Assembly (NCBI GenBank): GCA_963837465.1
Contig: CAWINB010000001.1
Coordinates: 75,915-139,914 of the forward strand
Source of the DNA: Candidatus Doudnabacteria bacterium
GTDB taxonomy: Bacteria; Patescibacteriota; Doudnabacteria; UBA920
Reading direction: 5' to 3'
Length of the DNA stretch: 64,000 nt
Numbering within the stretch: position 1 is the first letter of the stretch; each line of letters opens with the position of its first letter. Under the pieces are notes generated by a model. The model had not been told where the DNA came from. It made no database searches and saw only the letters and a program-made list of their open reading frames with translations. This document shows, one piece after another, positions 3,109 to 59,554 of the stretch. Both the position numbers and the translations under genes were made by a program.

Positions 3109-3143
3109 AGCTTAGTGTCAAGGGTCACCCTTGACACTAAGCT
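3109..3143. terminator. palindromic hairpin (16-bp stem, 3-nt loop) between convergent dus and CYTH genes; repeated element
   Basis: AGCTTAGTGTCAAGGG-TCA-CCCTTGACACTAAGCT. The 25-bp core AGTGTCAAGGGTCACCCTTGACACT recurs identically at 22359-22383. Confidence 0.6.
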
Positions 3144-3814: not shown

Positions 3815-3919
3815 TACTGACCTTTAACACATAGCTTAATAATCAGATGTGTCGCAAACTCTATAAAATCAAGCAGTTTTGATTAACATCTCTATTAACT
3901 TAAGTGTTAAAGGTCAGTA
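3815..3919. mobile_element. 105-bp MITE-like repeat, copy 1
   Basis: Terminal inverted repeats TACTGACCTTTAACAC / GTGTTAAAGGTCAGTA. Near-identical full copy at 34198-34302 and 3' half at 59455-59497. All are intergenic. Confidence 0.6.
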
Positions 3920-3954
3920 GATTCTGCGGTTTTACGTGGTGTCCGCAAGCTCTG

Positions 3955-6030
3955 TTAAGGTAAAGCCACTTTCAGCAGATTACCATCATTGAGCACAAAT
4001 ATGGTCTTGCCGGGCTCGTTAACCGCAAAATCCATAAGTTTGGTAAACTGTGATGACTTAAGCGTTTCCTGCAGGTTACCGGTTTTATCCATAACCAAAA
4101 TTTGGTTATTGGCCACATCCATCAAATAGATATTGTTGAAGCTTTTTTGGGTATAGATTTTATCGCCCGGCGCAAGGGGGGTTGAAAGGCCGGAGTCGGC
4201 AAAGGCGGCAGGCCCGCCGGCAAAGAATTTATTGACGCCGTTTTGGCCGAGGGCAAAAATACTGCCGTCAACAGCCAGGCTTTGGGCCTGCGCCAGGCTT
4301 GGACCCTGCGTCGAGACCACCGGTTTTGAAATAGTATTTTTTGTAACCAGGAAACTCAGAACCTCGGCCGCGCTTTTATCTATTAAATAGACGCGGTTGT
4401 TGAGGCCATAAAAACTTATGCCGCCGAAACTGCTTTTGGCAGGCACGTTTTGGGTAAAAGCCGGACCCAGGGTACCGGATAAAAAATTCCAAACGTACAA
4501 ACTCGTTCCATCGTAAACCACGGCCGAAGAGTCGTTTACATCCACACTGGCCACAATGCCCACAGGACAGCTAAGCGCGCCGTCGGCTATTTGACCGCTT
4601 TGCAGGTCGTAACTGATAATATCACCAACAGCCTGGGTGCCCAAAAATTGCGGCAAACTTATCAGGCTCAATCCTTTGCCCAAATTACCCAAATCGCTTA
4701 CCTTGACCTGCGTGACTTTTTGTATCTGCTGCAGCAGCGTTTGATATTGGGAAGAAATTTGGCTGTAAAGGATTTTGTCGGCGGACGGTACGTTTTTGGC
4801 CGGCGGTAAATCCGTTCCGGCCTGCTTTATAAGACCGGCGGCCTGGCTGTCGTCTTTATACAGGATTAAAGATTGGGCGTTGGCCAAAAGGCTTTTGGCG
4901 TTTTGCAACTGGCCGCTGATTTGGTCTTGTACCGCACGGCTTTTCTTTAAGTGCGCGGCTATTATAATATTGGCGGCCACGGCCAGCAGTAAAATAAGCG
5001 CCGAAGCCAGAAAGAATTTTTTTTGCCGGCTGAGGGAGCGGAAATTTTGCGGATTAACCGAAGTCTTAACGGCCTTGGCCGAAGTTTTGGCTTTCTGCCA
5101 GATTTTATTGCCGCCTGCCATTAGGCTCCGGGTATTTTGTGGTAAATTTTTCAGCCTTTGGCCCAAAGCCGCCCCGCCTCCATTAATGGATTTTGGCAAT
5201 CCGGCGGAGGGTTGGCTGGACGGCAAAAAAGCTTTGACATAATCCAGAGTCCGCGTTATAACGGTTTTGTTGGTTAAACCAGCCGGGACTGAGTAACCCG
5301 CCGTTGCCGTTTCCTGCTCCCGGGCTTGTCCTTCCGGAACCTGCAAATTCAGCAAAACCCCAAAAGACGCCTCGCCACCCGAGTTTTGTTTCAACAGTCC
5401 GATAATTGTTTTTACTCCGAGCAAAAAATCGCCGCTCATAATATCTTTAAGCCTGTCCAGCGATAAGTAATTCAGCAGTTGGGTGGTAGAGAGGATAATA
5501 AGGTCGTTTAGCCGGATTTTGCCGATGGCGTAGTTTTGGAAAGTTTTTAACGGATGAGTTTGGTCCGATGAGCAGGAGATATCGGTAAACTCGCCGTTGC
5601 GAAATAAGAAAGCCGCCACTTTTCCGGTGCTGGCCATGCTTAACTCAAGTCCCTGCCTGACGCCCAGCACGCAGTTAAGCTTATCTATCCACTGTGTTTG
5701 ACCCAGGGAGGCCAGCTTGCCCAGTTCCTCGTTTATTTGGCCAATGGCCGTTTCAAAAGTGTTTTCCGAAAGCGGGGCAGTTTTATAAGCCCTTCTAAAG
5801 GCCGAACCTATAGCCAGACAAATCCTTTGGCAATCTTCCGTTGCCGCCGGCGTTAGTATGGGCAGTTCGGCCACGGCGTACAGTTCCGCGGAGCCGGCGG
5901 TTTCCGCCATCAAATAAACATAACTACCAGGCGCCTTATTGTTTCCAAGTTGGATTTTTGCTATCTGTGACTCTAATTCTTCCATGAAAATACGATTGGA
6001 TAAAATGAATTCCCGGTTATTATACAACAA
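3955..6030 (-). CDS. large membrane-anchored hypothetical protein (weak PP2C/SpoIIE-like N-terminal region, central TM, C-terminal beta-propeller-like repeats)
   Basis: 691-aa ORF with one hydrophobic span (FFLASALILLLAVAANIIIAA) and repetitive C-terminal segments. Domain calls are weak. Confidence 0.55.
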   Translation of the reverse strand: MLYNNREFILSNRIFMEELESQIAKIQLGNNKAPGSYVYLMAETAGSAELYAVAELPILTPAATEDCQRICLAIGSAFRRAYKTAPLSENTFETAIGQINEELGKLASLGQTQWIDKLNCVLGVRQGLELSMASTGKVAAFLFRNGEFTDISCSSDQTHPLKTFQNYAIGKIRLNDLIILSTTQLLNYLSLDRLKDIMSGDFLLGVKTIIGLLKQNSGGEASFGVLLNLQVPEGQAREQETATAGYSVPAGLTNKTVITRTLDYVKAFLPSSQPSAGLPKSINGGGAALGQRLKNLPQNTRSLMAGGNKIWQKAKTSAKAVKTSVNPQNFRSLSRQKKFFLASALILLLAVAANIIIAAHLKKSRAVQDQISGQLQNAKSLLANAQSLILYKDDSQAAGLIKQAGTDLPPAKNVPSADKILYSQISSQYQTLLQQIQKVTQVKVSDLGNLGKGLSLISLPQFLGTQAVGDIISYDLQSGQIADGALSCPVGIVASVDVNDSSAVVYDGTSLYVWNFLSGTLGPAFTQNVPAKSSFGGISFYGLNNRVYLIDKSAAEVLSFLVTKNTISKPVVSTQGPSLAQAQSLAVDGSIFALGQNGVNKFFAGGPAAFADSGLSTPLAPGDKIYTQKSFNNIYLMDVANNQILVMDKTGNLQETLKSSQFTKLMDFAVNEPGKTIFVLNDGNLLKVALP

Positions 6031-11975: not shown

Positions 11976-12017
11976 TTCCGTTTGCGCTAGCGTACTAGTA
12001 CGCTAGCGCAAACGGAA
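11976..12017. terminator. 42-bp perfect palindrome after the DMT gene
   Basis: TTCCGTTTGCGCTAGCGTACTAGTACGCTAGCGCAAACGGAA followed by a T-rich tract. Confidence 0.5.
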
Positions 12018-27494: not shown

Positions 27495-28613
27495 ATGGCA
27501 AAAAGCAGGAAAAAAGTATTGATTGCTCTTTCCGGCGGAATCGATTCCGCGGTTTCGGCGTATTTGCTGCTTAAACAAGGCTATGAAGTGGAGGCCGCGT
27601 TTATGAAGAACTGGTCCAAGACGGCAGGTTTGCTTAAGAGCGATTGTCCCTGGCTGGTTGACCGGCAGGATGCTTTGCGCGTAGCGGCTTTTTTGCGCGT
27701 CCCTTTGCGTACGCTGGATTTTGAAAAGCAGTACCAAAAAAACGTTATGAGATATTTTTTTGACGAATACAAAAAAGGCCGGACGCCGAATCCGGATGTT
27801 ATGTGTAATAAGGAAATTAAGTTCAAACTTTTGTATAATTGGGCAATTAAGAACGGGTTTGATTATTTGGCGACCGGGCATTACGCCAGAATCGGAGGAT
27901 TGGAAAATCGGGGCCGTAGCGGGCCGATTTATAGGCGGCTTGGATATAATGGGCGCGCCACATTGGAGCGCGGCGCTGACGAATTCAAGGACCAAACCTA
28001 TTTTATTTACAACATAAAGCCCCGGCAGCTGCCGCATATTTTGTTTCCTGTCGGCGGCATGAAAAAATCCGCGGTGCGAGCTTTGGCGCGCAAACTTAAA
28101 CTGCCCAACGCGGAAAAAAAAGAAAGCATGGGTTTGTGCTTTGTGGGAAAAATCAGGCTAAAAGATTTTTTGGAGCAAAAGCTAAAGGAAAAGCCCGGGG
28201 ATATTCTTGACCTGAACCGCAAAACCATCGGCCGCCACCGGGGCCTGCATAACTACACCATCGGCCAGCGCCAGGGTATTAACATAGGCGGTTCGGCGCC
28301 ATATTATGTAACGAAAAAAGACCTGAAAACCAACAGGTTGTATGTGACCAATAACCCGGAGGATAAAAATTTGCTTACTAAAGAAATTCAAATCCACTCG
28401 GTAAATCAGCTGATCAGCTGGCCAGCTGATCAGCTGACCGGCCTGCGAGGACGCTATCGCCACCAGGGAGATTTAGTCCCGCTGACCATAAAAAAATTAG
28501 ACAAAATACATTATCAGGCAACCTTTAAAATCCCACAAAAAGCTATAGCCAGCGGACAGAGCCTGGTGCTTTATGAAGGCAAAACCTGTATAGGTGGCGG
28601 AGTAATAGCTTAA
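27495..28613 (+). CDS. mnmA: tRNA-specific 2-thiouridylase MnmA
   Basis: SGGIDSAV PP-loop and conserved catalytic Cys region. Carries a 32-bp palindromic in-frame insert at 28406-28437. Confidence 0.9.
   Translation: MAKSRKKVLIALSGGIDSAVSAYLLLKQGYEVEAAFMKNWSKTAGLLKSDCPWLVDRQDALRVAAFLRVPLRTLDFEKQYQKNVMRYFFDEYKKGRTPNPDVMCNKEIKFKLLYNWAIKNGFDYLATGHYARIGGLENRGRSGPIYRRLGYNGRATLERGADEFKDQTYFIYNIKPRQLPHILFPVGGMKKSAVRALARKLKLPNAEKKESMGLCFVGKIRLKDFLEQKLKEKPGDILDLNRKTIGRHRGLHNYTIGQRQGINIGGSAPYYVTKKDLKTNRLYVTNNPEDKNLLTKEIQIHSVNQLISWPADQLTGLRGRYRHQGDLVPLTIKKLDKIHYQATFKIPQKAIASGQSLVLYEGKTCIGGGVIA
28406..28437. repeat. 32-bp perfect palindrome inserted in-frame in mnmA
   Basis: TCAGCTGATCAGCTGG|CCAGCTGATCAGCTGA encodes QLISWPADQLT. 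The same peptide appears in the antisense ORF 28182-28463. Confidence 0.7.
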
Positions 28614-34197: not shown

Positions 34198-34302
34198 TAC
34201 TGACCTTTAACACATAGCTTAATAATCAGATGTGTCGCAAACTCTGTAAAATCAAGCATTTTTGATTAACATCTCTATTAACTTAAGTGTTAAAGGTCAG
34301 TA
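34198..34302. mobile_element. 105-bp MITE-like repeat, copy 2
   Basis: Near-identical to copy 1 (2-3 substitutions). 17-bp terminal inverted repeats CTACTGACCTTTAACAC. Confidence 0.6.
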
Positions 34303-34477
34303 GGATGGGGAAATGCGTACTACGAGCGCAAATTCTAATCTGAAGTGCAATCGCCGGCCCAGCCAATTAAAACTGTTACCAAGACTTTAGCGGGTAGCTC
34401 ATAAATGGGTTACTTATTAAGGGGTGGTTCAATTCGGCCATGTTTCTTATTTTTACTATCTTTGGTATAATAAACTC

Positions 34478-35503
34478 ATGCAAATGGCAATTCTTTATGG
34501 AATAATAGTCTTTCTTTTGGCTGGCTTTGGCGTGTTTTTTTATTTTTTGATGGGTTTAAAAAATAAAGCCGAAAAACCCGTCGATGACGGCAATATGAAG
34601 ATAATGCTGGAATGGATGAAGGAGATGAAGCAGAGTACGGAGGCGACCCGGGAAGGCATGCAAAAGTCCATAGATTCGACCAATAAAGCCATTAACGAGA
34701 GGCTGGATAACGCGGCAAAAGTTATCGGGGCTTTGTCCAAAGAGCTTGGCGGGGTATCGCAAATCGGGCCGGACATTCGGCGATTATCAGAAACCCTGGC
34801 TTCTCCCAAAATGCGCGGCAACTTTGGCGAAGAGATGCTGGAAAATATGCTGGGACAGATTTTGCCTAAAAATAATTTTAAAATCCAGTACCGTTTTAAA
34901 AACGGCGAAACAGTTGATGCCTGCATATTTATTGGCGAAACGATTTTGTCCATAGACAGCAAGTTCTCCTTAGAAAACTTCCGTCTATATAAAGAGGCCA
35001 AAGACGACGAAACGGCGGAAACTTTAAAGAAAGCGTTTTTAAAGGACGTAAAAAAACGGGTGGACGAAATTTGCAAAAAATACATCCTGCCGCAGGAGGG
35101 CACTTTTGATTTCGCGCTAATGTATGTGCCGAGCGAAGGAATTTACCAGGAAGTTATTGAAGCTTCTGATATCATCGAATACTGCCGAAGCAAAGCTGTT
35201 ATTCCCGTTTCCCCGAACACGATGTACATTTACCTGCGCAACATTATGCTGAGTTTGCGCGGCCAGGAAATAAACAAAAAGGCCCAAGAGATTCTTAAAA
35301 TGATCAGCGGCATAAAAACCGAAAGCGAAAAATTCGGCAAAAACCTGGAAGTTTTAGGCACCCACATAAAAAACGCGGGCAACACAATGGGAACCGTTGT
35401 GAATGACTTTACTCGCCTCCGCGGCAACATCCAAAACGCGGCGAATTTGGAATTGGAAGCGGAAGAAATTAAAGTTATAAAAGAACCCCAAAAGTTAATA
35501 TAA
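34478..35503 (+). CDS. rmuC: DNA recombination protein RmuC
   Basis: N-terminal TM and coiled coil. RGNFGEEMLENMLGQ matches the RmuC motif. ATG 34478 preferred over the track start 34424. Confidence 0.8.
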   Translation: MQMAILYGIIVFLLAGFGVFFYFLMGLKNKAEKPVDDGNMKIMLEWMKEMKQSTEATREGMQKSIDSTNKAINERLDNAAKVIGALSKELGGVSQIGPDIRRLSETLASPKMRGNFGEEMLENMLGQILPKNNFKIQYRFKNGETVDACIFIGETILSIDSKFSLENFRLYKEAKDDETAETLKKAFLKDVKKRVDEICKKYILPQEGTFDFALMYVPSEGIYQEVIEASDIIEYCRSKAVIPVSPNTMYIYLRNIMLSLRGQEINKKAQEILKMISGIKTESEKFGKNLEVLGTHIKNAGNTMGTVVNDFTRLRGNIQNAANLELEAEEIKVIKEPQKLI

Positions 35504-35507
35504 TTGT

Positions 35508-36164
35508 ATGCCCAAAAATCCAGAAATAATATTAGGAGGTGGCGGAGAAAAGCAAGTTTACGAAGATAAAATTGATCCTTTAAAAGTCACCGCTGAATTT
35601 CCAGATGCAGTACAAGATTTAAATACTGGAAATTCGGATTATAAACCAAATCAGATTAAAGGAGCTTACTATTTGGGTAAAATTGCCAAGTTGCTATTTC
35701 CTGATGCTGTCGCCGAGCATTATGCCGCCGGTATGAAACCGTTGCCATTTTTAAGGATATCAAAATTGGAATTAGATTCTGACCATGTCGAATATCAAGA
35801 GTCTTTGAGAACACCGACGGAGCTTGCTGAACGTTTAGAAAATCGATTACCGGGCATTCAGGCATTAACAAAAACAATGAATAAGGCCGGATTAAGAATT
35901 GATGACATGCCGCATAATTTTTCTTACTCACCGGAAGGGCATTTGCAATATGTGGACGCCAAATTACCATGGAGGGTTGAAGTTATGGACCCATTTACCA
36001 AAAAGCAGAGTGTTGAGCTACATTTTTCTCCAACTAAATTAAAACGAGCAATTGAAAATCTACCTCAGCCCCAACAGAAAATTGCGATGCGATATTATGA
36101 ACGGTTAATAAAATTACATAGTGAAGAGAAAAAAATAATCAAACAAGAAAATAGAAAAATATGA
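35508..36164 (+). CDS. hypothetical protein, possibly a minimal kinase-like fold
   Basis: Gly-rich LGGGGEKQVYE, catalytic-loop-like IDDMPHN and YVDAK about 19 aa later. 4-nt gap after rmuC and 4-nt overlap with the NYN gene. Interpretation is inference. Confidence 0.45.
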   Translation: MPKNPEIILGGGGEKQVYEDKIDPLKVTAEFPDAVQDLNTGNSDYKPNQIKGAYYLGKIAKLLFPDAVAEHYAAGMKPLPFLRISKLELDSDHVEYQESLRTPTELAERLENRLPGIQALTKTMNKAGLRIDDMPHNFSYSPEGHLQYVDAKLPWRVEVMDPFTKKQSVELHFSPTKLKRAIENLPQPQQKIAMRYYERLIKLHSEEKKIIKQENRKI

Positions 36165-36682
36165 GTATTAGAAACCCAGACCAGCGCGTCGGTGTGTTTG
36201 TGGATGTACAGAATTTGTACTATTCCGCCAGAAATATTTATCAGGCCAGAGTGAAATTTAATGAGGTTTTGGAAGCGGCTGTGGCCGGACGTAAGCTAAT
36301 TCGCGCCATTGCTTATTGCGTTAAAGCGGATATGCCGGAAGAACATACTTTTTTTGAGGCTTTGGAAAAAGCCGGCTTTGAGGTAAAAATGAAGGAACTG
36401 CAAACTTTTGCCGGCGGCCATCAAAAAGGGGATTGGGATGTCGGGATTGCCATGGATATTATTAAGCTTATGAACAAGCTGGACGTAATAGTCTTGGCCA
36501 GCGGCGACGGCGACTATCTTCCTTTGCTGGAGTACCTGCAAATGTCCGGTCAATTCACCGAAACCCTGGCCTTTGGCAAATCCTGCTCGGGAAAAATTAA
36601 GGAAGTCACGGATTATTTTATAGATCTCGACGAAAATCCCCGCAAATTCCTGATGCCTATCAAGAACGGGAAAAACAGATAG
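36161..36682 (+). CDS. NYN-domain (LabA-like, PIN-fold) ribonuclease
   Basis: VFVDVQNLYY ... GDWDVGIAMD ... VLASGDGDYLPL are NYN-domain motifs. Confidence 0.75.
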   Translation: MSIRNPDQRVGVFVDVQNLYYSARNIYQARVKFNEVLEAAVAGRKLIRAIAYCVKADMPEEHTFFEALEKAGFEVKMKELQTFAGGHQKGDWDVGIAMDIIKLMNKLDVIVLASGDGDYLPLLEYLQMSGQFTETLAFGKSCSGKIKEVTDYFIDLDENPRKFLMPIKNGKNR

Positions 36683-36697
36683 GAAGGAATTGCACGG

Positions 36698-37135
36698 ATG
36701 AACACGGATAGGAAACAGATTAACACGGAGTTGCTGCACGAAGATTTGACGTACCAAATCCGGTCGGCAATTTTTGAGATAGCTAATAAGTATGGGAAGG
36801 GTTTTAAAGAGAGTATTTACCAGGCGGCGTTAGCCGAAGAGTTCGCCAAACGCAGTATTCCTTTTGAGTCACAAAAACGCATCACAGTTTATTCTTTAGA
36901 TACTGGCAAACCCCTGGGTTATTATATCCCGGATTTTATAGCTTACGAAAAAATTATTATAGAGATAAAAGCCACAGATTTTACGACAGACCAAAATATT
37001 GAGCAAGAGCTGTCTTATCTGCGAATAAGTACTTACGAGATTGGGATTTTAGTTAATTTTAATGCCCGCAAACTGGACATCCAAAGACTCATATTTACCA
37101 ACGACCGCAAGCTATTTTTGAAAAAAATACTCTGA
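36698..37135 (+). CDS. GxxExxY-family protein (PD-(D/E)xK nuclease-like)
   Basis: GFKESIY is the GxxExxY motif. 145 aa. Bounded by 18-bp terminal inverted repeats. Confidence 0.7.
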   Translation: MNTDRKQINTELLHEDLTYQIRSAIFEIANKYGKGFKESIYQAALAEEFAKRSIPFESQKRITVYSLDTGKPLGYYIPDFIAYEKIIIEIKATDFTTDQNIEQELSYLRISTYEIGILVNFNARKLDIQRLIFTNDRKLFLKKIL

Positions 37136-37154
37136 TCCGTGTTAATCTGTTTCT
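36712..37154. mobile_element. GxxExxY nuclease gene cassette bounded by perfect 18-bp terminal inverted repeats
   Basis: GAAACAGATTAACACGGA at 36712-36729 and its reverse complement TCCGTGTTAATCTGTTTC at 37137-37154. Shorter AACACGGAT / ATCTGT units flank both sides. Confidence 0.55.
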
Positions 37155-37193
37155 TATCTGTGTTTATCTGTTACAAATACATTATATTGTCCT

Positions 37194-37637
37194 ATGAAAA
37201 TTGTTCTAGATACCAATGTCCTAATAAACGGGTTTAAAGATGAGTATTCTTACGAAAAAAAGATTATAGGTGCCGTGATTTCGGGCGAAATAGAAGCTTA
37301 TGCCAACAGGCAGACTTTGCGGGAAAATAAATTAATCGCAGGACAGTTAATTGACAACGACGACTACAGGCACGACCTGGATAGTTTGTTCGCCCAAATA
37401 AACTGGGTGGTTAACCGGCGGCAAATCCGGGTGGTCAGCGATCCCGAAGACAATAAAATCCTGGAAAGCGCCGTGGAAGCGAAAGCGGATTTTTTAGTCA
37501 CCAGCGACAACGATTTACTGCAACTTGATAACTATCAACAAGTCCAAATAGTCAATCCAAGCCAATTTTGGCTAAAGCATAAAGACGACGGTATGGATTT
37601 GTGGAAACAGTGGGCCAGCTTTATCAGTAAAAAATAG
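37194..37637 (+). CDS. PIN-domain protein (putative toxin/RNase)
   Basis: IVLDTNVLI ... ADFLVTSDNDLL acidic PIN motifs. 147 aa. Confidence 0.7.
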   Translation: MKIVLDTNVLINGFKDEYSYEKKIIGAVISGEIEAYANRQTLRENKLIAGQLIDNDDYRHDLDSLFAQINWVVNRRQIRVVSDPEDNKILESAVEAKADFLVTSDNDLLQLDNYQQVQIVNPSQFWLKHKDDGMDLWKQWASFISKK

Positions 37638-37642
37638 CACGG

Positions 37643-40600
37643 ATGGAAAAACTGCTGGACAATCTCAATAAAGAACAGCTTTCCGCGGTTACCCATAGGG
37701 ACGGGCCGCTTTTGATAGTGGCGGGAGCCGGGACGGGAAAGACCACGGTTATTACCCGGCGGATAGCTTATTTAATAGAACAGGGATTGGCCAAGCCCGA
37801 TGAAATTTTGGCGCTAACGTTTACGGACAAAGCCGCCGGGGAAATGCAGGACAGGCTGGCGCAGTTGTTGCCTCTGGGCTATTACGATATGTGGATTTCC
37901 ACGTTCCACAGCTTTTGCCAGCGAATTTTGGAACAGCACGGGCTGGATATCGGCCTGCCCGGGGACTTTAAACTGCTCAATAAGGCGGGCGCCTGGATAT
38001 TAATTTACAATAATTTGCAGAAATTTAATTTAAATTACTACAAACCGCTGGGCAACCCCAATAAATTTATTTCCGCTTTGCTTAAGCATTTTAGCCGGTG
38101 CAAAGACGAGCTGATAACTCCGGAGGCCTATTTGGAGTACGCGCGGGAACTGAAGCTGTCTACAGATGTAGCCGAAGGTGTAGGGGCTGGCTTTAGCCGC
38201 CCGCCTCCTGATGACGGGCCGCGCGGATCTTCTTTACGGGGCGGGCAGGCAAGCCCAGCCCCCGCGGATCCCAATATGGATCCAGCCGAAACACTTCGAA
38301 TAGAAGAAATTGCCAACGCTTTCCATATTTACGAAAAACTCCTGCTGGACGGCAACTTTTTGGACTTTGCCAACCTGATTAATTACACAATAAAACTTTT
38401 TGAAAAACGCCCGCAAATTTTAAAACACTACCGGGAAAAGTTTAAATATATTATGGTGGATGAGTTTCAGGATACCAATTTGGCGCAGTACGAGCTGATT
38501 AAAATGGTTGCCGGCGGCGGATTACGCAGCGTTCCCGCTTACGGGGCGTCCCCGGATGCCGATAAATCCGCGCGCCACACCCCATCTGCCAACCTCGTAG
38601 TCGTGGGCGACGACGACCAATCCATTTACAAATTCCGCGGCGCGTCCGTTTCCAATATTTTAAAATTCCAGGAGGACTACAGCCCACTCAAACAAACCAG
38701 TTTGGTGGAAAATTACAGAAGCGGCCAGGAAATTTTGGATTTGGCTTATGACTTTATCCAGTCCAACAATCCCGAGAGGCTGGAAGTTAAGTTAAAAATC
38801 AATAAAAGACTTAAAAGCCAAACGAAGGAAAAATCTGTTATTGAGGTTTTGGAAGGCAAGGATTTGGTTGAGGAACTTAATTTTGTCGCCAAAAAAATTA
38901 CGGAACTGAAATTGCAAAGCCAAAAAAGCACCTGGAACGATTTTGCCGTTTTAATAAGAAGCAATTCCGCGGCCCGCGAACTGTTGCCGGTCCTGGAAAA
39001 GCACGGCATCCCGCACACGTTTGTGGCCAATACAGGACTCTACAACAAGCCTTTTATTTCATTGCTGATTGCTTATTTGGAATGTCTGGACAATTTTCAC
39101 GACTCTTTTGCCTTGTATCGCGTGCTTTCGTTTGGCGAATTTAATATGCCGCCGGAGGACTTGGCGCAGGTTCTGGCCAATTCCGAAAGAAAAACCTTGT
39201 CTTTATACGAAATGCTCGGCAAAGCCGAAACTTTGCCGCAAATAGGGGGGAAGTCGCAAAAAATAATTCAAAATATTATTTTGCTTTTAAACCGGCACGC
39301 CGCGGTGGCCAGAGAAAAAGCGGCTAATGAAGTCTTTATCCAGATTATCCGTGATTTAAAACTCGACCAATGGCTGGAGGAGGATAATTCGCAAAACGCG
39401 GAAAACCGCGAGCTTTTGGAGCAGTTTTATAAAAAAATTGAAACTTTTGTGGCGGAGAATGTCGATAAAAGCCTGCATAATTTTTCGCATCTGCTCAATT
39501 TGGAAATAGAAGCCGGTGACGAAGGGCAGATTAAATTTGACCCGAACTTAGGCCCCCAAAGCCTTAAAATCCTTACCGTGCATTCGGCCAAGGGCTTGGA
39601 ATTTGAATATGTTTTTATACCCAACATGGTTGACCAGCGCTTTCCCACGCGGGCGCGCGGCGAACAAATAGAAATTCCGGCGCCGCTTATAAAAGATATC
39701 CTGCCGGAAGGGGATTTCCATCTCCAGGAGGAGAGGCGGCTGTTTTACGTGGCCGTAACCCGGGCAAAATCCCATTTATACTTGTCCTGGAGCAAGGATT
39801 ACGGCGGCGCCAAAACCAAAAAGCCTTCGCTGTTTTTGCAGGAGACCAAACTGGTGCCCGGGGAACATACTTCCCGGGCCACGGGAAAAGTATTTTTTCG
39901 GGGCAGCTCGAAAAATCAGGTGGTTTACAAATTTTTACCCGCGACTTTTTCTTTTTCCGCTCTCAAAGCTTTTGAAAACTGCCCGTTCCAATACAAATAC
40001 CAGTACTACCTAAAATTGCCCTGCCCCGGCAGCGCTTATTTCAGCTTTGGCCAGACAATGCATAAAACCTTTGAGTTGTATTTGAAAGATTACGCGGCCA
40101 GAAAAAGCCAGAGCCAGCGGGATTTATTCGCCAAGACATCCGCCCAAGCCGAGCCGGGCGATTTTAAATTTTTGGAAAAACTTTACCAGGACAGCTGGGT
40201 GGATGAGTGGTATAAAGATAAAAAGCAAAAAGAAGATTACCGCGAAAGAGGCCGCCGGCTTTTAAAGATTTTTTACGAAATTTCGCGAAAAAACCCGCCG
40301 AGCCCCAAATACCTGGAAAAGTCTTTTTACCTGCCTCTGGGGAAATATAAATTTACCGGCAAAATAGACAGAGCGGATTTTGTAAACGGCGCCCTGGAAA
40401 TCATTGATTACAAAACCAGCGAAAAAATACCGAAGCAAAATGACAAGGACGGACTGGACCAGTTGTATGTTTATCAGTGGGCGGCCCAGGAATTTTTGGG
40501 GGAAAAAGTTTCTGCCCTAAAGTACTGGTATTTGAACGAGGATAAGTTTCTGCCGGAAAAAATCGCGTCGGACCCGGAAATCCGGGAATTAAAGCAAAGG

Positions 40601-40735
40601 CTTTTAAAAAGCATTGAAAATATCGCGGAAACCATCAAATACGACCGTTTCGCCCAAGCGCACGAAAATACCAGGGAACACCAATGCCAATTTGAACATT
40701 GGGAAATCCATGGTTTGAATTTAAAAATAAACTAA
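37643..40735 (+). CDS. UvrD/PcrA-family SF1 helicase with C-terminal RecB-like PD-(D/E)xK nuclease domain (AddA-like)
   Basis: Walker A GAGTGKTT, DEFQDT, VVGDDDQSIY and the helicase C-domain. C-terminal CPFQYKYQYY and IIDYKTS nuclease motifs. In-frame GC-rich palindromic insert at 38180-38263. Confidence 0.85.
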   Translation: MEKLLDNLNKEQLSAVTHRDGPLLIVAGAGTGKTTVITRRIAYLIEQGLAKPDEILALTFTDKAAGEMQDRLAQLLPLGYYDMWISTFHSFCQRILEQHGLDIGLPGDFKLLNKAGAWILIYNNLQKFNLNYYKPLGNPNKFISALLKHFSRCKDELITPEAYLEYARELKLSTDVAEGVGAGFSRPPPDDGPRGSSLRGGQASPAPADPNMDPAETLRIEEIANAFHIYEKLLLDGNFLDFANLINYTIKLFEKRPQILKHYREKFKYIMVDEFQDTNLAQYELIKMVAGGGLRSVPAYGASPDADKSARHTPSANLVVVGDDDQSIYKFRGASVSNILKFQEDYSPLKQTSLVENYRSGQEILDLAYDFIQSNNPERLEVKLKINKRLKSQTKEKSVIEVLEGKDLVEELNFVAKKITELKLQSQKSTWNDFAVLIRSNSAARELLPVLEKHGIPHTFVANTGLYNKPFISLLIAYLECLDNFHDSFALYRVLSFGEFNMPPEDLAQVLANSERKTLSLYEMLGKAETLPQIGGKSQKIIQNIILLLNRHAAVAREKAANEVFIQIIRDLKLDQWLEEDNSQNAENRELLEQFYKKIETFVAENVDKSLHNFSHLLNLEIEAGDEGQIKFDPNLGPQSLKILTVHSAKGLEFEYVFIPNMVDQRFPTRARGEQIEIPAPLIKDILPEGDFHLQEERRLFYVAVTRAKSHLYLSWSKDYGGAKTKKPSLFLQETKLVPGEHTSRATGKVFFRGSSKNQVVYKFLPATFSFSALKAFENCPFQYKYQYYLKLPCPGSAYFSFGQTMHKTFELYLKDYAARKSQSQRDLFAKTSAQAEPGDFKFLEKLYQDSWVDEWYKDKKQKEDYRERGRRLLKIFYEISRKNPPSPKYLEKSFYLPLGKYKFTGKIDRADFVNGALEIIDYKTSEKIPKQNDKDGLDQLYVYQWAAQEFLGEKVSALKYWYLNEDKFLPEKIASDPEIRELKQRLLKSIENIAETIKYDRFAQAHENTREHQCQFEHWEIHGLNLKIN
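38180..38263. repeat. GC-rich palindromic element (RPE-like) inserted in-frame in the helicase gene
   Basis: Left arm GTAGGGGCTGGCTTTAGCCGCCCG is identical to 14374-14397. Right arm is GGCGGGCAGGCAAGCCCAGCCCCC. Encodes VGAGFSRP...ASPAPA between helicase motifs. Confidence 0.7.
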
Positions 40736-53855: not shown

Positions 53856-54537
53856 ATGAGTAAACTTTTTGTTGTTTCCCTCGGAGGTTCTTTGATTAAT
53901 CCGGGGCAAGTTGACGCGGTTTTTTTAAAAAAATTCCGGACTTTGGTGTTGGAGCAGGTAAAAAAAGGCAATCGGTTTATTTTAATAACGGGCGGCGGAA
54001 AGCCAGCCAGGGATTATCTGGCCGCCTTAAAATCCGTAGCCAAGTCATCCAGCAATGAGCTGGATTGGATGGGAATTTTCGTCGACCAGGCTTAACGCCC
54101 AGCTGGTGCGGCTAATGTTCGGCAAACTTGCCCATGGCGGAATTGTAGAGGATCCCAATATCAAATTAAGTTTTAAAGAAAAAATTCTGGTCGCCGGCGG
54201 CTGGATGCCGGGCCGGAGTACGGATGACGACGCGGTAAGGCTGGCCAAAATTTACGGCGCGGGTACCGTAATAAATTTAAGTAATATCGATTATGTTTAC
54301 ACAAAAGATCCGCGAAAATTCAAAGACGCCAAACTAATAAAAGACATTTCCTGGAAAGATTTCAGGAAAATCGTGGGCAACAAATGGGATCCGGGCAAAA
54401 ACCTGCCCTTTGACCCGACTGCCGCCAAGCTGGCCGAGCAGCTTAAGCTAAAAGTTATAATCGCCAACGGAAAAAATTTGGGAAATCTGAAAAATATTTT
54501 GGAAGGCAAAAATTTTAAGGGGACAACAGTACGCTAA
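53856..54537 (+). pseudogene. pyrH: UMP kinase (archaeal-type amino-acid-kinase family) with +1 frameshift near 54070-54092
   Basis: Frame A MSKLFVVSLGGSL...ELDWMGIFVDQA stops. Frame B continues STRLNAQLVRLMFG...VAGGW... through the C-terminal kinase domain. Combined ~228 aa. Confidence 0.6.
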
Positions 54538-54575
54538 AACACGGAAGACACGGACAAGAAACGGAGGAGGACGTG

Positions 54576-59036: not shown

Positions 59037-59435
59037 GTGGTTTGTGTAAACTTTTTATTCCCTTATTTAAAGCAAAAAATGAACCGGGAAGATTTATTAA
59101 AATTTAAATTTGATGTGGATAATGTTTGGTTTCTTTGGGGTTTATGCCTTATTTTAAATATTATAACATTTTTATTCCTGTTTTTCAAAATCCATCCGGG
59201 AAGTAAAATTTTGGCCCTGCATTATAACGTCCTGCTCGGGGTGGACTGGTACGGGGCCGGCAGGAATTTATACTTTATTCCGGGGGTGGGATTTTTAATT
59301 TCAGCCGTAAATTTTACCCTTTACCGATCGCTTGGCAACAATGAAGCCTTCCTTTCTTCTTTAACCGCTTTTGTGAGCTTGTGCGCGCAGCTTATATTAC
59401 TGGTCGCGGCGCTGTTTTTGGCTAAAGTCAATTAA
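59037..59435 (+). CDS. hypothetical membrane protein
   Basis: 132 aa, three to four TM helices. Confidence 0.4.
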   Translation: MVCVNFLFPYLKQKMNREDLLKFKFDVDNVWFLWGLCLILNIITFLFLFFKIHPGSKILALHYNVLLGVDWYGAGRNLYFIPGVGFLISAVNFTLYRSLGNNEAFLSSLTAFVSLCAQLILLVAALFLAKVN

Positions 59436-59554
59436 CACGGATCTACGAATACTATTTTGATTAACATCTCTATTAACTTAAGTGTTAAAGGTCAGTAAGA
59501 TCAGTAGGTATCTGTAGATCCGTTTTCAATCCGTATACCCGCGTTAAATTTATT
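59431..59554 (+). promoter_or_regulatory. conserved structured intergenic module (copy B) containing a partial MITE copy (59455-59497)
   Basis: AATTAACACGGATCTACGAATAC ... [MITE 3' half] ... GTATCTGTAGATCCGTTTTCAATCCGTATACCCGCGTTAAATTTATTATGTAT. Flanking inverted repeat CGGATCTAC / GTAGATCCG. Confidence 0.5.

Follow-up and report, generated by a model that had tools for sequence, protein, structure and literature searches.

A 64-kb stretch of DNA from Candidatus Doudnabacteria bacterium, referred to here at its full length as the window, carries a small nuclease gene of the GxxExxY family that lies between two inverted arrays of short repeats in an operon, after an NYN gene and before a PIN gene. 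On balance we lean towards the view that this locus belongs to a widespread class of array-bracketed GxxExxY cassettes that insert between a stop codon and the next start codon in operons, with the arrays acting as cis-acting protein-binding ends. A preliminary description of the locus had proposed a minimal mobile cassette consisting of the gene and perfect 18-bp terminal inverted repeats. Much of the anatomy it gave is confirmed below; the nature of the ends and the agent of mobility are viewed differently.

The perfect 18-bp inverted repeat is real. The 18-mer GAAACAGATTAACACGGA occupies positions 36712-36729 and its exact reverse complement positions 37136-37153, one base off the 37137-37154 first reported. 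The window holds three matches to it at up to three mismatches where 0.04 are expected by chance, and none of 100 shuffles reached three. The repeat extends to arms of 36 nt (36694-36729 and 37136-37171) that are complementary at 32 of 36 positions with 406 nt between them, and it is the longest inverted repeat in the whole 64 kb among those with arms inside 1.2 kb. All four mismatches place a G opposite a T and correspond to G:U pairs in the sense RNA. Each arm consists of four tandem units of about 10 nt with ACGGAT or ACAGAT cores, which bears out the shorter tandem units noted earlier on both sides. The cores start at 36694, 36704, 36715 and 36725 in the left arm and, as mirror images, at 37135, 37145, 37156 and 37166 in the right arm, with a spacing of 10-11-10 in both. 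The upstream array (36692-36730, forward strand; units GCACGGAT / GAACACGGAT / AGGAAACAGAT / TAACACGGAG) overlaps the start codon and codons 1-11 of the GxxExxY gene, so that the left arm lies inside the open reading frame (ORF) and encodes residues 1-11 (MNTDRKQINTE). The downstream array (37135-37174, forward strand) has four inverted units, ATCCGTGTTA / ATCTGTTTCTT / ATCTGTGTTT / ATCTGTTAC, and the right arm begins one base past the TGA stop. The left arm, unlike in the preliminary description, does not frame the gene. A degenerate unit-like sequence, AAGAACGGGA AAAACAGATA GGAAGGAATT, precedes the upstream array (36663-36691, forward strand) and spans the last NYN codons, the NYN stop (TAG, 36680-36682) and a Shine-Dalgarno-like motif (GGAAGGA, 36682-36688) located 9 nt before the GxxExxY ATG. 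Between the NYN stop and the PIN start the whole inserted segment measures 511 nt (36683-37193, forward strand), compared with 2-24 nt at the equivalent junction of empty-site relatives. The arms contain no terminator-like and no promoter-like sites above background, and a role as intrinsic terminator or promoter was rejected on these grounds.

The gene itself (36698-37135, forward strand; 438 bp with the stop codon, 145 aa) is a GxxExxY gene as first described, since its product matches TIGR04256 with 106.3 bits over residues 16-132 (cut-off 35) and PF13366 (PDDEXK_3) with 100.4 bits (cut-off 22). The protein carries the motif G35-F-K-E38-S-I-Y41 and the catalytic residues P78-D79 ... E89-x-K91, and its predicted fold is restriction-endonuclease-like (PD-(D/E)xK). 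An AlphaFold model built with 39 homologues has a predicted local distance difference test score (pLDDT) of 91.5, with the array-encoded residues 1-9 disordered. A sequence search against solved structures returned only a marginal match to T7 endonuclease I (E = 0.05). Residues G35, E38, D79, E89 and K91 are invariant among the 39 homologues, and the ratio of nonsynonymous to synonymous differences per site (pN/pS) is 0.07 against the closest syntenic relative, L082 (86% aa identity; L numbers denote individual loci), in a comparison in which synonymous sites are saturated. The invariant catalytic residues and this low ratio indicate that the gene encodes a working protein kept intact by purifying selection. 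The arrays are under sequence constraint as well: comparing the window with L082, where pS reaches 0.65-0.91 and is saturated, gives 87% identity for the left array and 80% for the right one, which is non-coding; the outer right-arm units ATCTGTGTT.ATCTGTT are invariant across five aligned loci. Many homologues begin with MNTD..KQINTD and end with ..IRVNP or ..IRVNQ. Because the coding sequence of INTD, ATTAACACGGAT, is the reverse complement of that of IRVN, ATCCGTGTTAAT, these N- and C-terminal tails are translated repeat arrays and not protein features. No match to the gene was found in PADLOC or PHROGs and no relatives in viral contigs, and a defence-system or phage origin was rejected. 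In the searchable literature the function of GxxExxY / PDDEXK_3 is stated solely as "unknown".

To place these arrays in the gene family we used a sample of 80 homologous GxxExxY loci from species-representative genomes, mostly of Patescibacteria, with Planctomycetota, WOR-3, Omnitrophica, Bacteroidia and Methylomirabilota among the others. At each locus the two 110-nt flanks were searched for their best ungapped inverted repeat, which was scored against shifted controls in the same loci. The median score was 12 for the flanks versus 7 for the controls, and 62 of the 80 loci lay above the control 95th percentile. A stricter count, demanding at least three units in the expected orientation, found arrays flanking the gene on one side or both at 63 of 78 loci, and on both at 35 of 78, with a background of 0.057 arrays per kb in the same loci, but its core 7-mer was picked from the flanks themselves and thus favours flank arrays; the shifted-control test is free of this bias. 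Compared with the remainder of these loci, the surroundings of GxxExxY genes are about 100-fold enriched in arrays. Four units at 10-12-10 make up the commonest geometry (17 upstream and 14 downstream arrays), and a second class has a spacing of 11-10-7. Only a core of 7-8 nt is conserved, in sense orientation upstream and inverted downstream, and the ends are thus four-unit arrays and not the simple terminal inverted repeats originally proposed. The core differs by lineage (CACGGAT, CACAGAT, CACGAAT, CACTAAT, CACTGAC or CACGGAC) but does not change from one side of a gene to the other. Comparison of the two arms of a cassette gave 90-100% identity in the cores, 40-60% at the degenerate middle base and 30-60% in the spacers; for the middle base and the spacers the comparison between loci gave 20-30%, and outside the arrays the sequences match at random level. 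This family-wide pattern favours repeated protein-binding sites about one helical turn apart.

The arrays also recur in a cultured bacterium. On a plasmid of the Spirochaete Treponema saccharophilum, a GxxExxY gene with only 40% identity lies between TTGTCACACGGATTCG and CGAATCCGTGTTATAA, which are separated by 429 nt, and its flank units CACACGGAT / ATCCGTGT have the same core as other GxxExxY cassettes. On a Fusobacteria plasmid (L166, CP102406.1) the gene is flanked instead by a 52-nt direct repeat, 83% identical, at 1413-1464 and 1870-1921. ATCCGTGT is present in each copy and points the same way in both. This departs from the inverted rule, and the copies may be two element ends that lie next to each other. 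Of 73 cassettes, 61 run in the direction of both neighbours, and the arrays usually adjoin the upstream stop codon and the downstream start codon. We found no account of the arrays or of the cassette class in the searchable literature, though such absence is no proof of novelty.

An insertable module is supported by the junction between NYN and PIN, where the preliminary description had suggested looking for empty sites: some relatives have it empty, and in others it is filled. The NYN protein, used to scan metagenomes, gave 80 loci, many with the gene order RmuC-NYN-PIN-helicase. The junction is empty in seven of them (L095, L112, L111, L097, L099, L103 and L108; NYN 84-91% identical at the amino acid level), with 2-24 nt and without any array. 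It holds a GxxExxY cassette with arrays in the window, L082, L007, L025, L087 and L126, a distant GxxExxY gene with ACCCGAAT-type arrays in L091, a gene-less pair of CTACGAA arrays in L119, and in L114 and L162 a PF05635 gene (E = 2e-27) between inverted arrays that are built of a different unit, measure 27-31 nt and lie about 400 nt apart. The empty junctions without arrays imply that the arrays arrive or leave together with the gene. In L084-L086, L096, L100, L109 and L140 the junction contains unrelated small ORFs (120-303 aa) that have neither arrays nor a Pfam match, so that the slot varies beyond the array cassettes. The native 3' end of NYN in empty sites resembles one array unit (AAAAACAGATGA in L095, GACACCGATAA in L108, and L097 too), which might make the junction a preferred target.

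Duplicates of cassettes are carried by L017 and L018. L017 shows a recent duplication: a full cassette has, 1 kb from it, a copy with an internal deletion of about 290 bp that matches it at 100% (145 nt) and 98.8% (80 nt) identity. The match begins at the outer edge of the upstream array and reaches the ATG of the following gene, 12 nt beyond the last downstream unit; the flanks of the two copies are unrelated. L034 and L037 are likewise 86% identical over the cassette with unrelated right flanks, and in the related loci L022, L023 and L024 the cassette is 93-96% identical versus 77-91% for the flanking genes. Decay takes several forms, namely an in-frame stop in L087, a frameshift in L025 and the internal deletion in L017, and gene-less head-to-head array pairs are seen in L018, L022, L052, L056 and L042, with further gene-less pairs in L119 and in the window (59434-59538). 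According to these comparisons, what is gained, lost, duplicated and eroded is the array-gene-array module. One operon, a pyruvate:ferredoxin oxidoreductase-like operon in L022 (1363-4470), has three elements in separate intergenic gaps: a gene-less array pair (1968-2035), a degenerate PF05635-like ORF (2406-2645) and a GxxExxY cassette (about 3933-4468).

The mobile cassette of the preliminary description thus finds partial support, in empty and filled junctions, the L017 duplicate, changes of context and decay. Several observations count against it, and against our own proposal. Target-site duplications were looked for where the element joins the window sequence, at the two L017 copies and between filled and empty sites, and none was found. 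The product has no DDE, HUH or recombinase domain, and no recognisable transposase or recombinase was found. The 64-kb window contains neither a second GxxExxY gene nor a second copy of the 18-mer. The syntenic copies (those of the window, L082, L087, L007 and L126) are placed by a distance tree in one clade that also includes L083 and L003, two intruders from other gene contexts; since the syntenic copies are near-monophyletic, the locus speaks for inheritance and not for recent movement. The divergence of GxxExxY from its relatives (59-86% aa identity) is within the range of RmuC and the helicase. As judged from these comparisons the window insertion is old and mostly vertically inherited. 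We do not claim a replacement of the cassette at this locus, where GxxExxY identity is lower than that of NYN yet in the range of the neighbours and the copies are nearly monophyletic. The bias of the strict count noted above belongs on the same side of the balance. So does the fact that PF05635 genes, a non-nuclease cargo, share the cassette architecture, which means that the nuclease need not be the mobilising enzyme.

The PF05635 cassettes bear on the question of which protein reads the arrays. Among the PF05635 genes in the examined loci, 10 of 12 have flank repeats scoring at least 13, the control 95th percentile being 9. In L021 an ACGGAT array lies ahead of a PF05635 gene and has the type and geometry of the array in the GxxExxY cassette of that genome, whereas in L017 the GxxExxY and PF05635 cassettes carry different units. 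On one contig, L091, two GxxExxY subfamilies have different cores, and the same core surrounds GxxExxY genes in very distant hosts. This sharing of a core between distant hosts, together with the cassette-specific units in L091 and L017, favours reading by the nuclease of the cassette itself. The hypothesis of a host-specific unit was rejected for L091 and L017, with two unit types per genome, but not for L021, where the unit is shared. The L021 copy of PF05635 may lack autonomy, or a repeat spread by other means may carry both cargoes as passengers. Mobility of the gene itself, which was first suggested, is not supported in the sense of a movement driven by its own product, since a non-nuclease cargo has the same architecture.

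In the sample, then, the cassette consists of a gene for a PD-(D/E)xK nuclease of about 125 aa between inverted arrays, typically of four units of about 10 nt, and we propose that it inserts, in the direction of its neighbours, into the short gap that separates a stop codon from the following start codon in an operon. The arrays would be cis-acting ends to which a protein binds, their cores lying about one helical turn from each other; this protein is most probably the nuclease of the cassette or an oligomer of it. The nuclease may cut or synapse the two ends, or cut vacant sites, and the module would thereby be copied without a target-site duplication. Since the cassette would be transcribed by read-through its arms could also pair in the mRNA, which is probably a side effect or a secondary function and not the primary reason for the arrays. 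We would extend the proposal only tentatively, at odds clearly below even, to the statement that GxxExxY proteins are the mobilising or homing enzymes of phylum-spanning mini-elements, of which the PF05635 cassettes would be sister or non-autonomous forms and the ORF-bearing intervening sequences (IVSs) of 23S rRNA the same element landed in rRNA. A direct rRNA link was looked for and rejected, universal 16S/23S motifs being absent from all 80 GxxExxY loci and from the window.

The anatomy of the window element could point to RNA instead. If it worked as an IVS does, RNase III would cut the stem, excising or silencing the cassette mRNA and splitting the operon into an upstream and a downstream half, this processing would be what maintains the arrays, and mobility would be incidental or historical; we regard this as rather unlikely, although the locus taken singly fits it well. 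Folding predicts for the sense transcript an uninterrupted stem of 36 bp, four of them G:U, that closes the ORF and buries its ATG (z = -4.3). The arm duplex has an energy of -70.2 kcal/mol in sense versus -53.4 kcal/mol in antisense, and such a stem would be a plausible RNase III substrate. The 23S IVS of Coxiella has 428-444 nt, a 28-bp terminal stem, an S23p ORF and RNase III cleavage (PMC4990558). With the 23S IVS the window element shares a size of about 430-480 nt and terminal inverted repeats as a 28-36 bp stem around one small ORF; PF05635 is itself the IVS-protein family, whose cassettes occupy the same junction in relatives, and the co-orientation with the operon noted above suits a role in RNA. 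ORF-bearing 23S IVSs, as in Coxiella burnetii and Leptospira, are regarded as selfish or once mobile and their ORFs are commonly decayed (PMC4990558). The element differs from them in that it lies in a protein-coding operon and not in helix 25 or 45 of 23S rRNA, has a PD-(D/E)xK nuclease in place of the four-helix-bundle S23p as cargo, and has arms that are four-unit arrays with conserved cores and not plain complementary ends. Across the family, mismatches between the arms are slightly more often G:U-compatible than A:C (115 vs 81, p = 0.018), but 358 of 554 are transversions that break pairing. Over 79 loci the sense strand had the better pairing energy in 42 and the antisense strand in 36 (p = 0.27), that is, there is no asymmetry, while the arms of both strands pair far better than controls (p = 4e-6). 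Complementarity is centred in the repeated cores with weakly matched spacers, a simple stem gives no reason for four units at a fixed 10-12-10 spacing, and in some loci (L021, L067) a distance of 40-50 nt and a terminator-like hairpin separate the upstream array from the start codon. With only a weak G:U excess, mostly transversions and no strand asymmetry, the strict RNA-stem model was rejected and is kept as a secondary reading. Because conservation resides in the repeated cores and their spacing and not in continuous complementarity, we rank a DNA-level cis role first, with RNA pairing as its likely secondary consequence.

A DNA-level role does not by itself tie the arrays to the nuclease. 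They could be autonomous repeats of the repetitive extragenic palindromic (REP) type, REP doublet-forming hairpins (REPINs) or transposable elements of the miniature inverted-repeat kind (MITEs), spread by an unlinked enzyme or by recombination, with the GxxExxY and PF05635 genes as passengers or as a domesticated partner resembling the REP-associated tyrosine transposases (RAYTs). To this we give about the same low credence as to the IVS-like role. Gene-less pairs or solo arrays in intergenic sites suit it, both in the window (59434-59538 and 54539-54570) and in L119 and the five loci with head-to-head pairs listed above, as do the two unrelated cargo families with one architecture and, in L021, one unit. 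So does vertical inheritance with conserved arrays, since in REPIN-RAYT systems a REP-flanked RAYT gene shows long vertical persistence (PMC3337134, PMC3116915). The likeness to these systems lies in a nuclease-type gene between inverted short-repeat copies and in the presence of the repeat as gene-less intergenic inverted pairs. The differences are the PD-(D/E)xK fold where RAYTs are HUH Y1 (IS200/IS605-like) transposases, tandem arrays of units of about 10 nt where REPs are single palindromes of 20-40 nt, and the occurrence of GxxExxY genes in multiple copies in some genomes, with two or three per 8-kb locus in L018, L019/L044 and L091. Autonomous repeats would leave unexplained that empty NYN-PIN junctions lack any array and that arrays are concentrated beside GxxExxY genes to the extent described, and the different units within one genome (L091, L017) argue against a single host-wide repeat family. 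No HUH- or RAYT-like gene was seen, though no genome-wide search for one was made. As a further alternative the arrays could be operators for the autoregulation of a resident, non-mobile gene, whose protein or a host regulator would loop the DNA. Cores about one helical turn apart on both sides and the constraint on the arrays in a stably inherited locus agree with this, but empty and filled orthologous junctions, array-bounded duplicates, gene-less pairs and cassettes with unrelated proteins would have no explanation, and we consider it very improbable.

The array-bracketed cassette that we prefer also resembles other known elements in part. Like a transposon with terminal inverted repeats or a MITE it has such repeats, several copies with the same ends, and filled/empty polymorphism. 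The Correia elements of Neisseria are likewise short, bounded by inverted repeats, located between genes and co-transcribed, with RNA hairpins that RNase III can bind or cut (PMC2649163), and the gene-less pairs here look MITE-like; Correia elements, however, have a TA target duplication and no ORF, whereas the element described here shows no duplication and in its full form includes a gene. A parallel is also offered by free-standing homing endonuclease genes, with a small nuclease gene placed between two conserved genes, present or absent, and passing from intact through stop or frameshift to absent. To our knowledge the known homing families (LAGLIDADG, HNH, GIY-YIG and a few PD-(D/E)xK) are not bracketed by inverted repeat arrays, and they differ also in that a non-nuclease cargo shares the architecture here. 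Integron cassettes are similar as promoter-less, co-oriented single-gene modules with imperfect inverted-repeat sites, in which cores of about 7 bp are paired. An integron cassette has its attC at the 3' end only and requires an integron integrase and an attI platform; the cassettes described here have arrays on both sides, are scattered in ordinary operons and have no integrase in the operon.

The conserved host operon is tight, as the preliminary description had stated for NYN and PIN, and extends from RmuC (34424-35503) through a 218-aa ORF (35508-36164), NYN (36161-36682) and PIN_3 (37194-37637) to a UvrD/PDDEXK_1-type helicase-nuclease (37643-40735). The 218-aa ORF has no Pfam, NCBIfam or PADLOC match and is missing from most relatives, which have a 12-nt gap (L007) or a GxxExxY cassette in its place; GxxExxY cassettes are found between RmuC and NYN in L090, L091, L093, L100, L101 and L107. 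With an ORF, a gap or a cassette at this position, the RmuC-NYN junction is a second variable slot.

Apart from the cassette the window holds a pair of arrays and a solo array of the same unit family, both without a gene and both starting at a stop codon. A gene-less inverted pair of ACGGAT/ACGAAT type (59434-59538; AACACGGAT CTACGAATAC, 55 nt, GTATCTGTAGATCCGTTTTCAATCCGT; fold z = -3.5) starts at the stop codon of the ORF 59037-59435, and its interior 55 nt are half of an unrelated 105-nt hairpin repeat. A solo array of three units, ACACGGAAG ACACGGACAAG AAACGGAGG (54539-54570, forward strand), lies between convergent genes directly after the stop of the ORF 54055-54537 and has no inverted partner up to 56700. 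The palindromic repeat of about 105 nt, CTACTGACCTTTAACACATAGCTTAATA ... TATTAACTTAAGTGTTAAAGGTCAGTAG, is present in near-identical copies at 3815-3919 and 34198-34302 and as a half copy at 59453-59497, its 3' half being the one nested in the gene-less pair. It folds as a single long hairpin (-46.7 kcal/mol, z = -9.2), matches no Rfam family above threshold and looks like a MITE-type element or an unknown hairpin RNA. An Rfam scan of the window gave two tRNAs only. Perfect palindromes with a loop of 0 or 1 nt, unrelated to the arrays, are located at 11976-12017 (21+21), 28406-28437 (16+16) and 3109-3143 (17+17).

From the point of view of the two protein families, GxxExxY (PDDEXK_3) and the "23S rRNA IVS protein" are large and widespread, and the searchable literature assigns no function to either. 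Both lie in array-bracketed insertable modules of one kind and can take each other's place at one operon junction. For annotation, the odd tails MNTD..KQINTD and ..IRVNP are translated repeats. A testable model follows, with four cores at 10-12-10 as its defined cis element, a candidate enzyme, and alleles that are filled, empty or decayed in nature. Where the ORF-bearing rRNA IVSs come from has been unsettled since the 1990s (PMC4990558). The description of TIGR04256 mentions large paralogous expansions of GxxExxY genes. If GxxExxY proteins were indeed mobilising enzymes, this would explain the paralogous expansions of both orphan families as well as the origin of the ORF-bearing IVSs.

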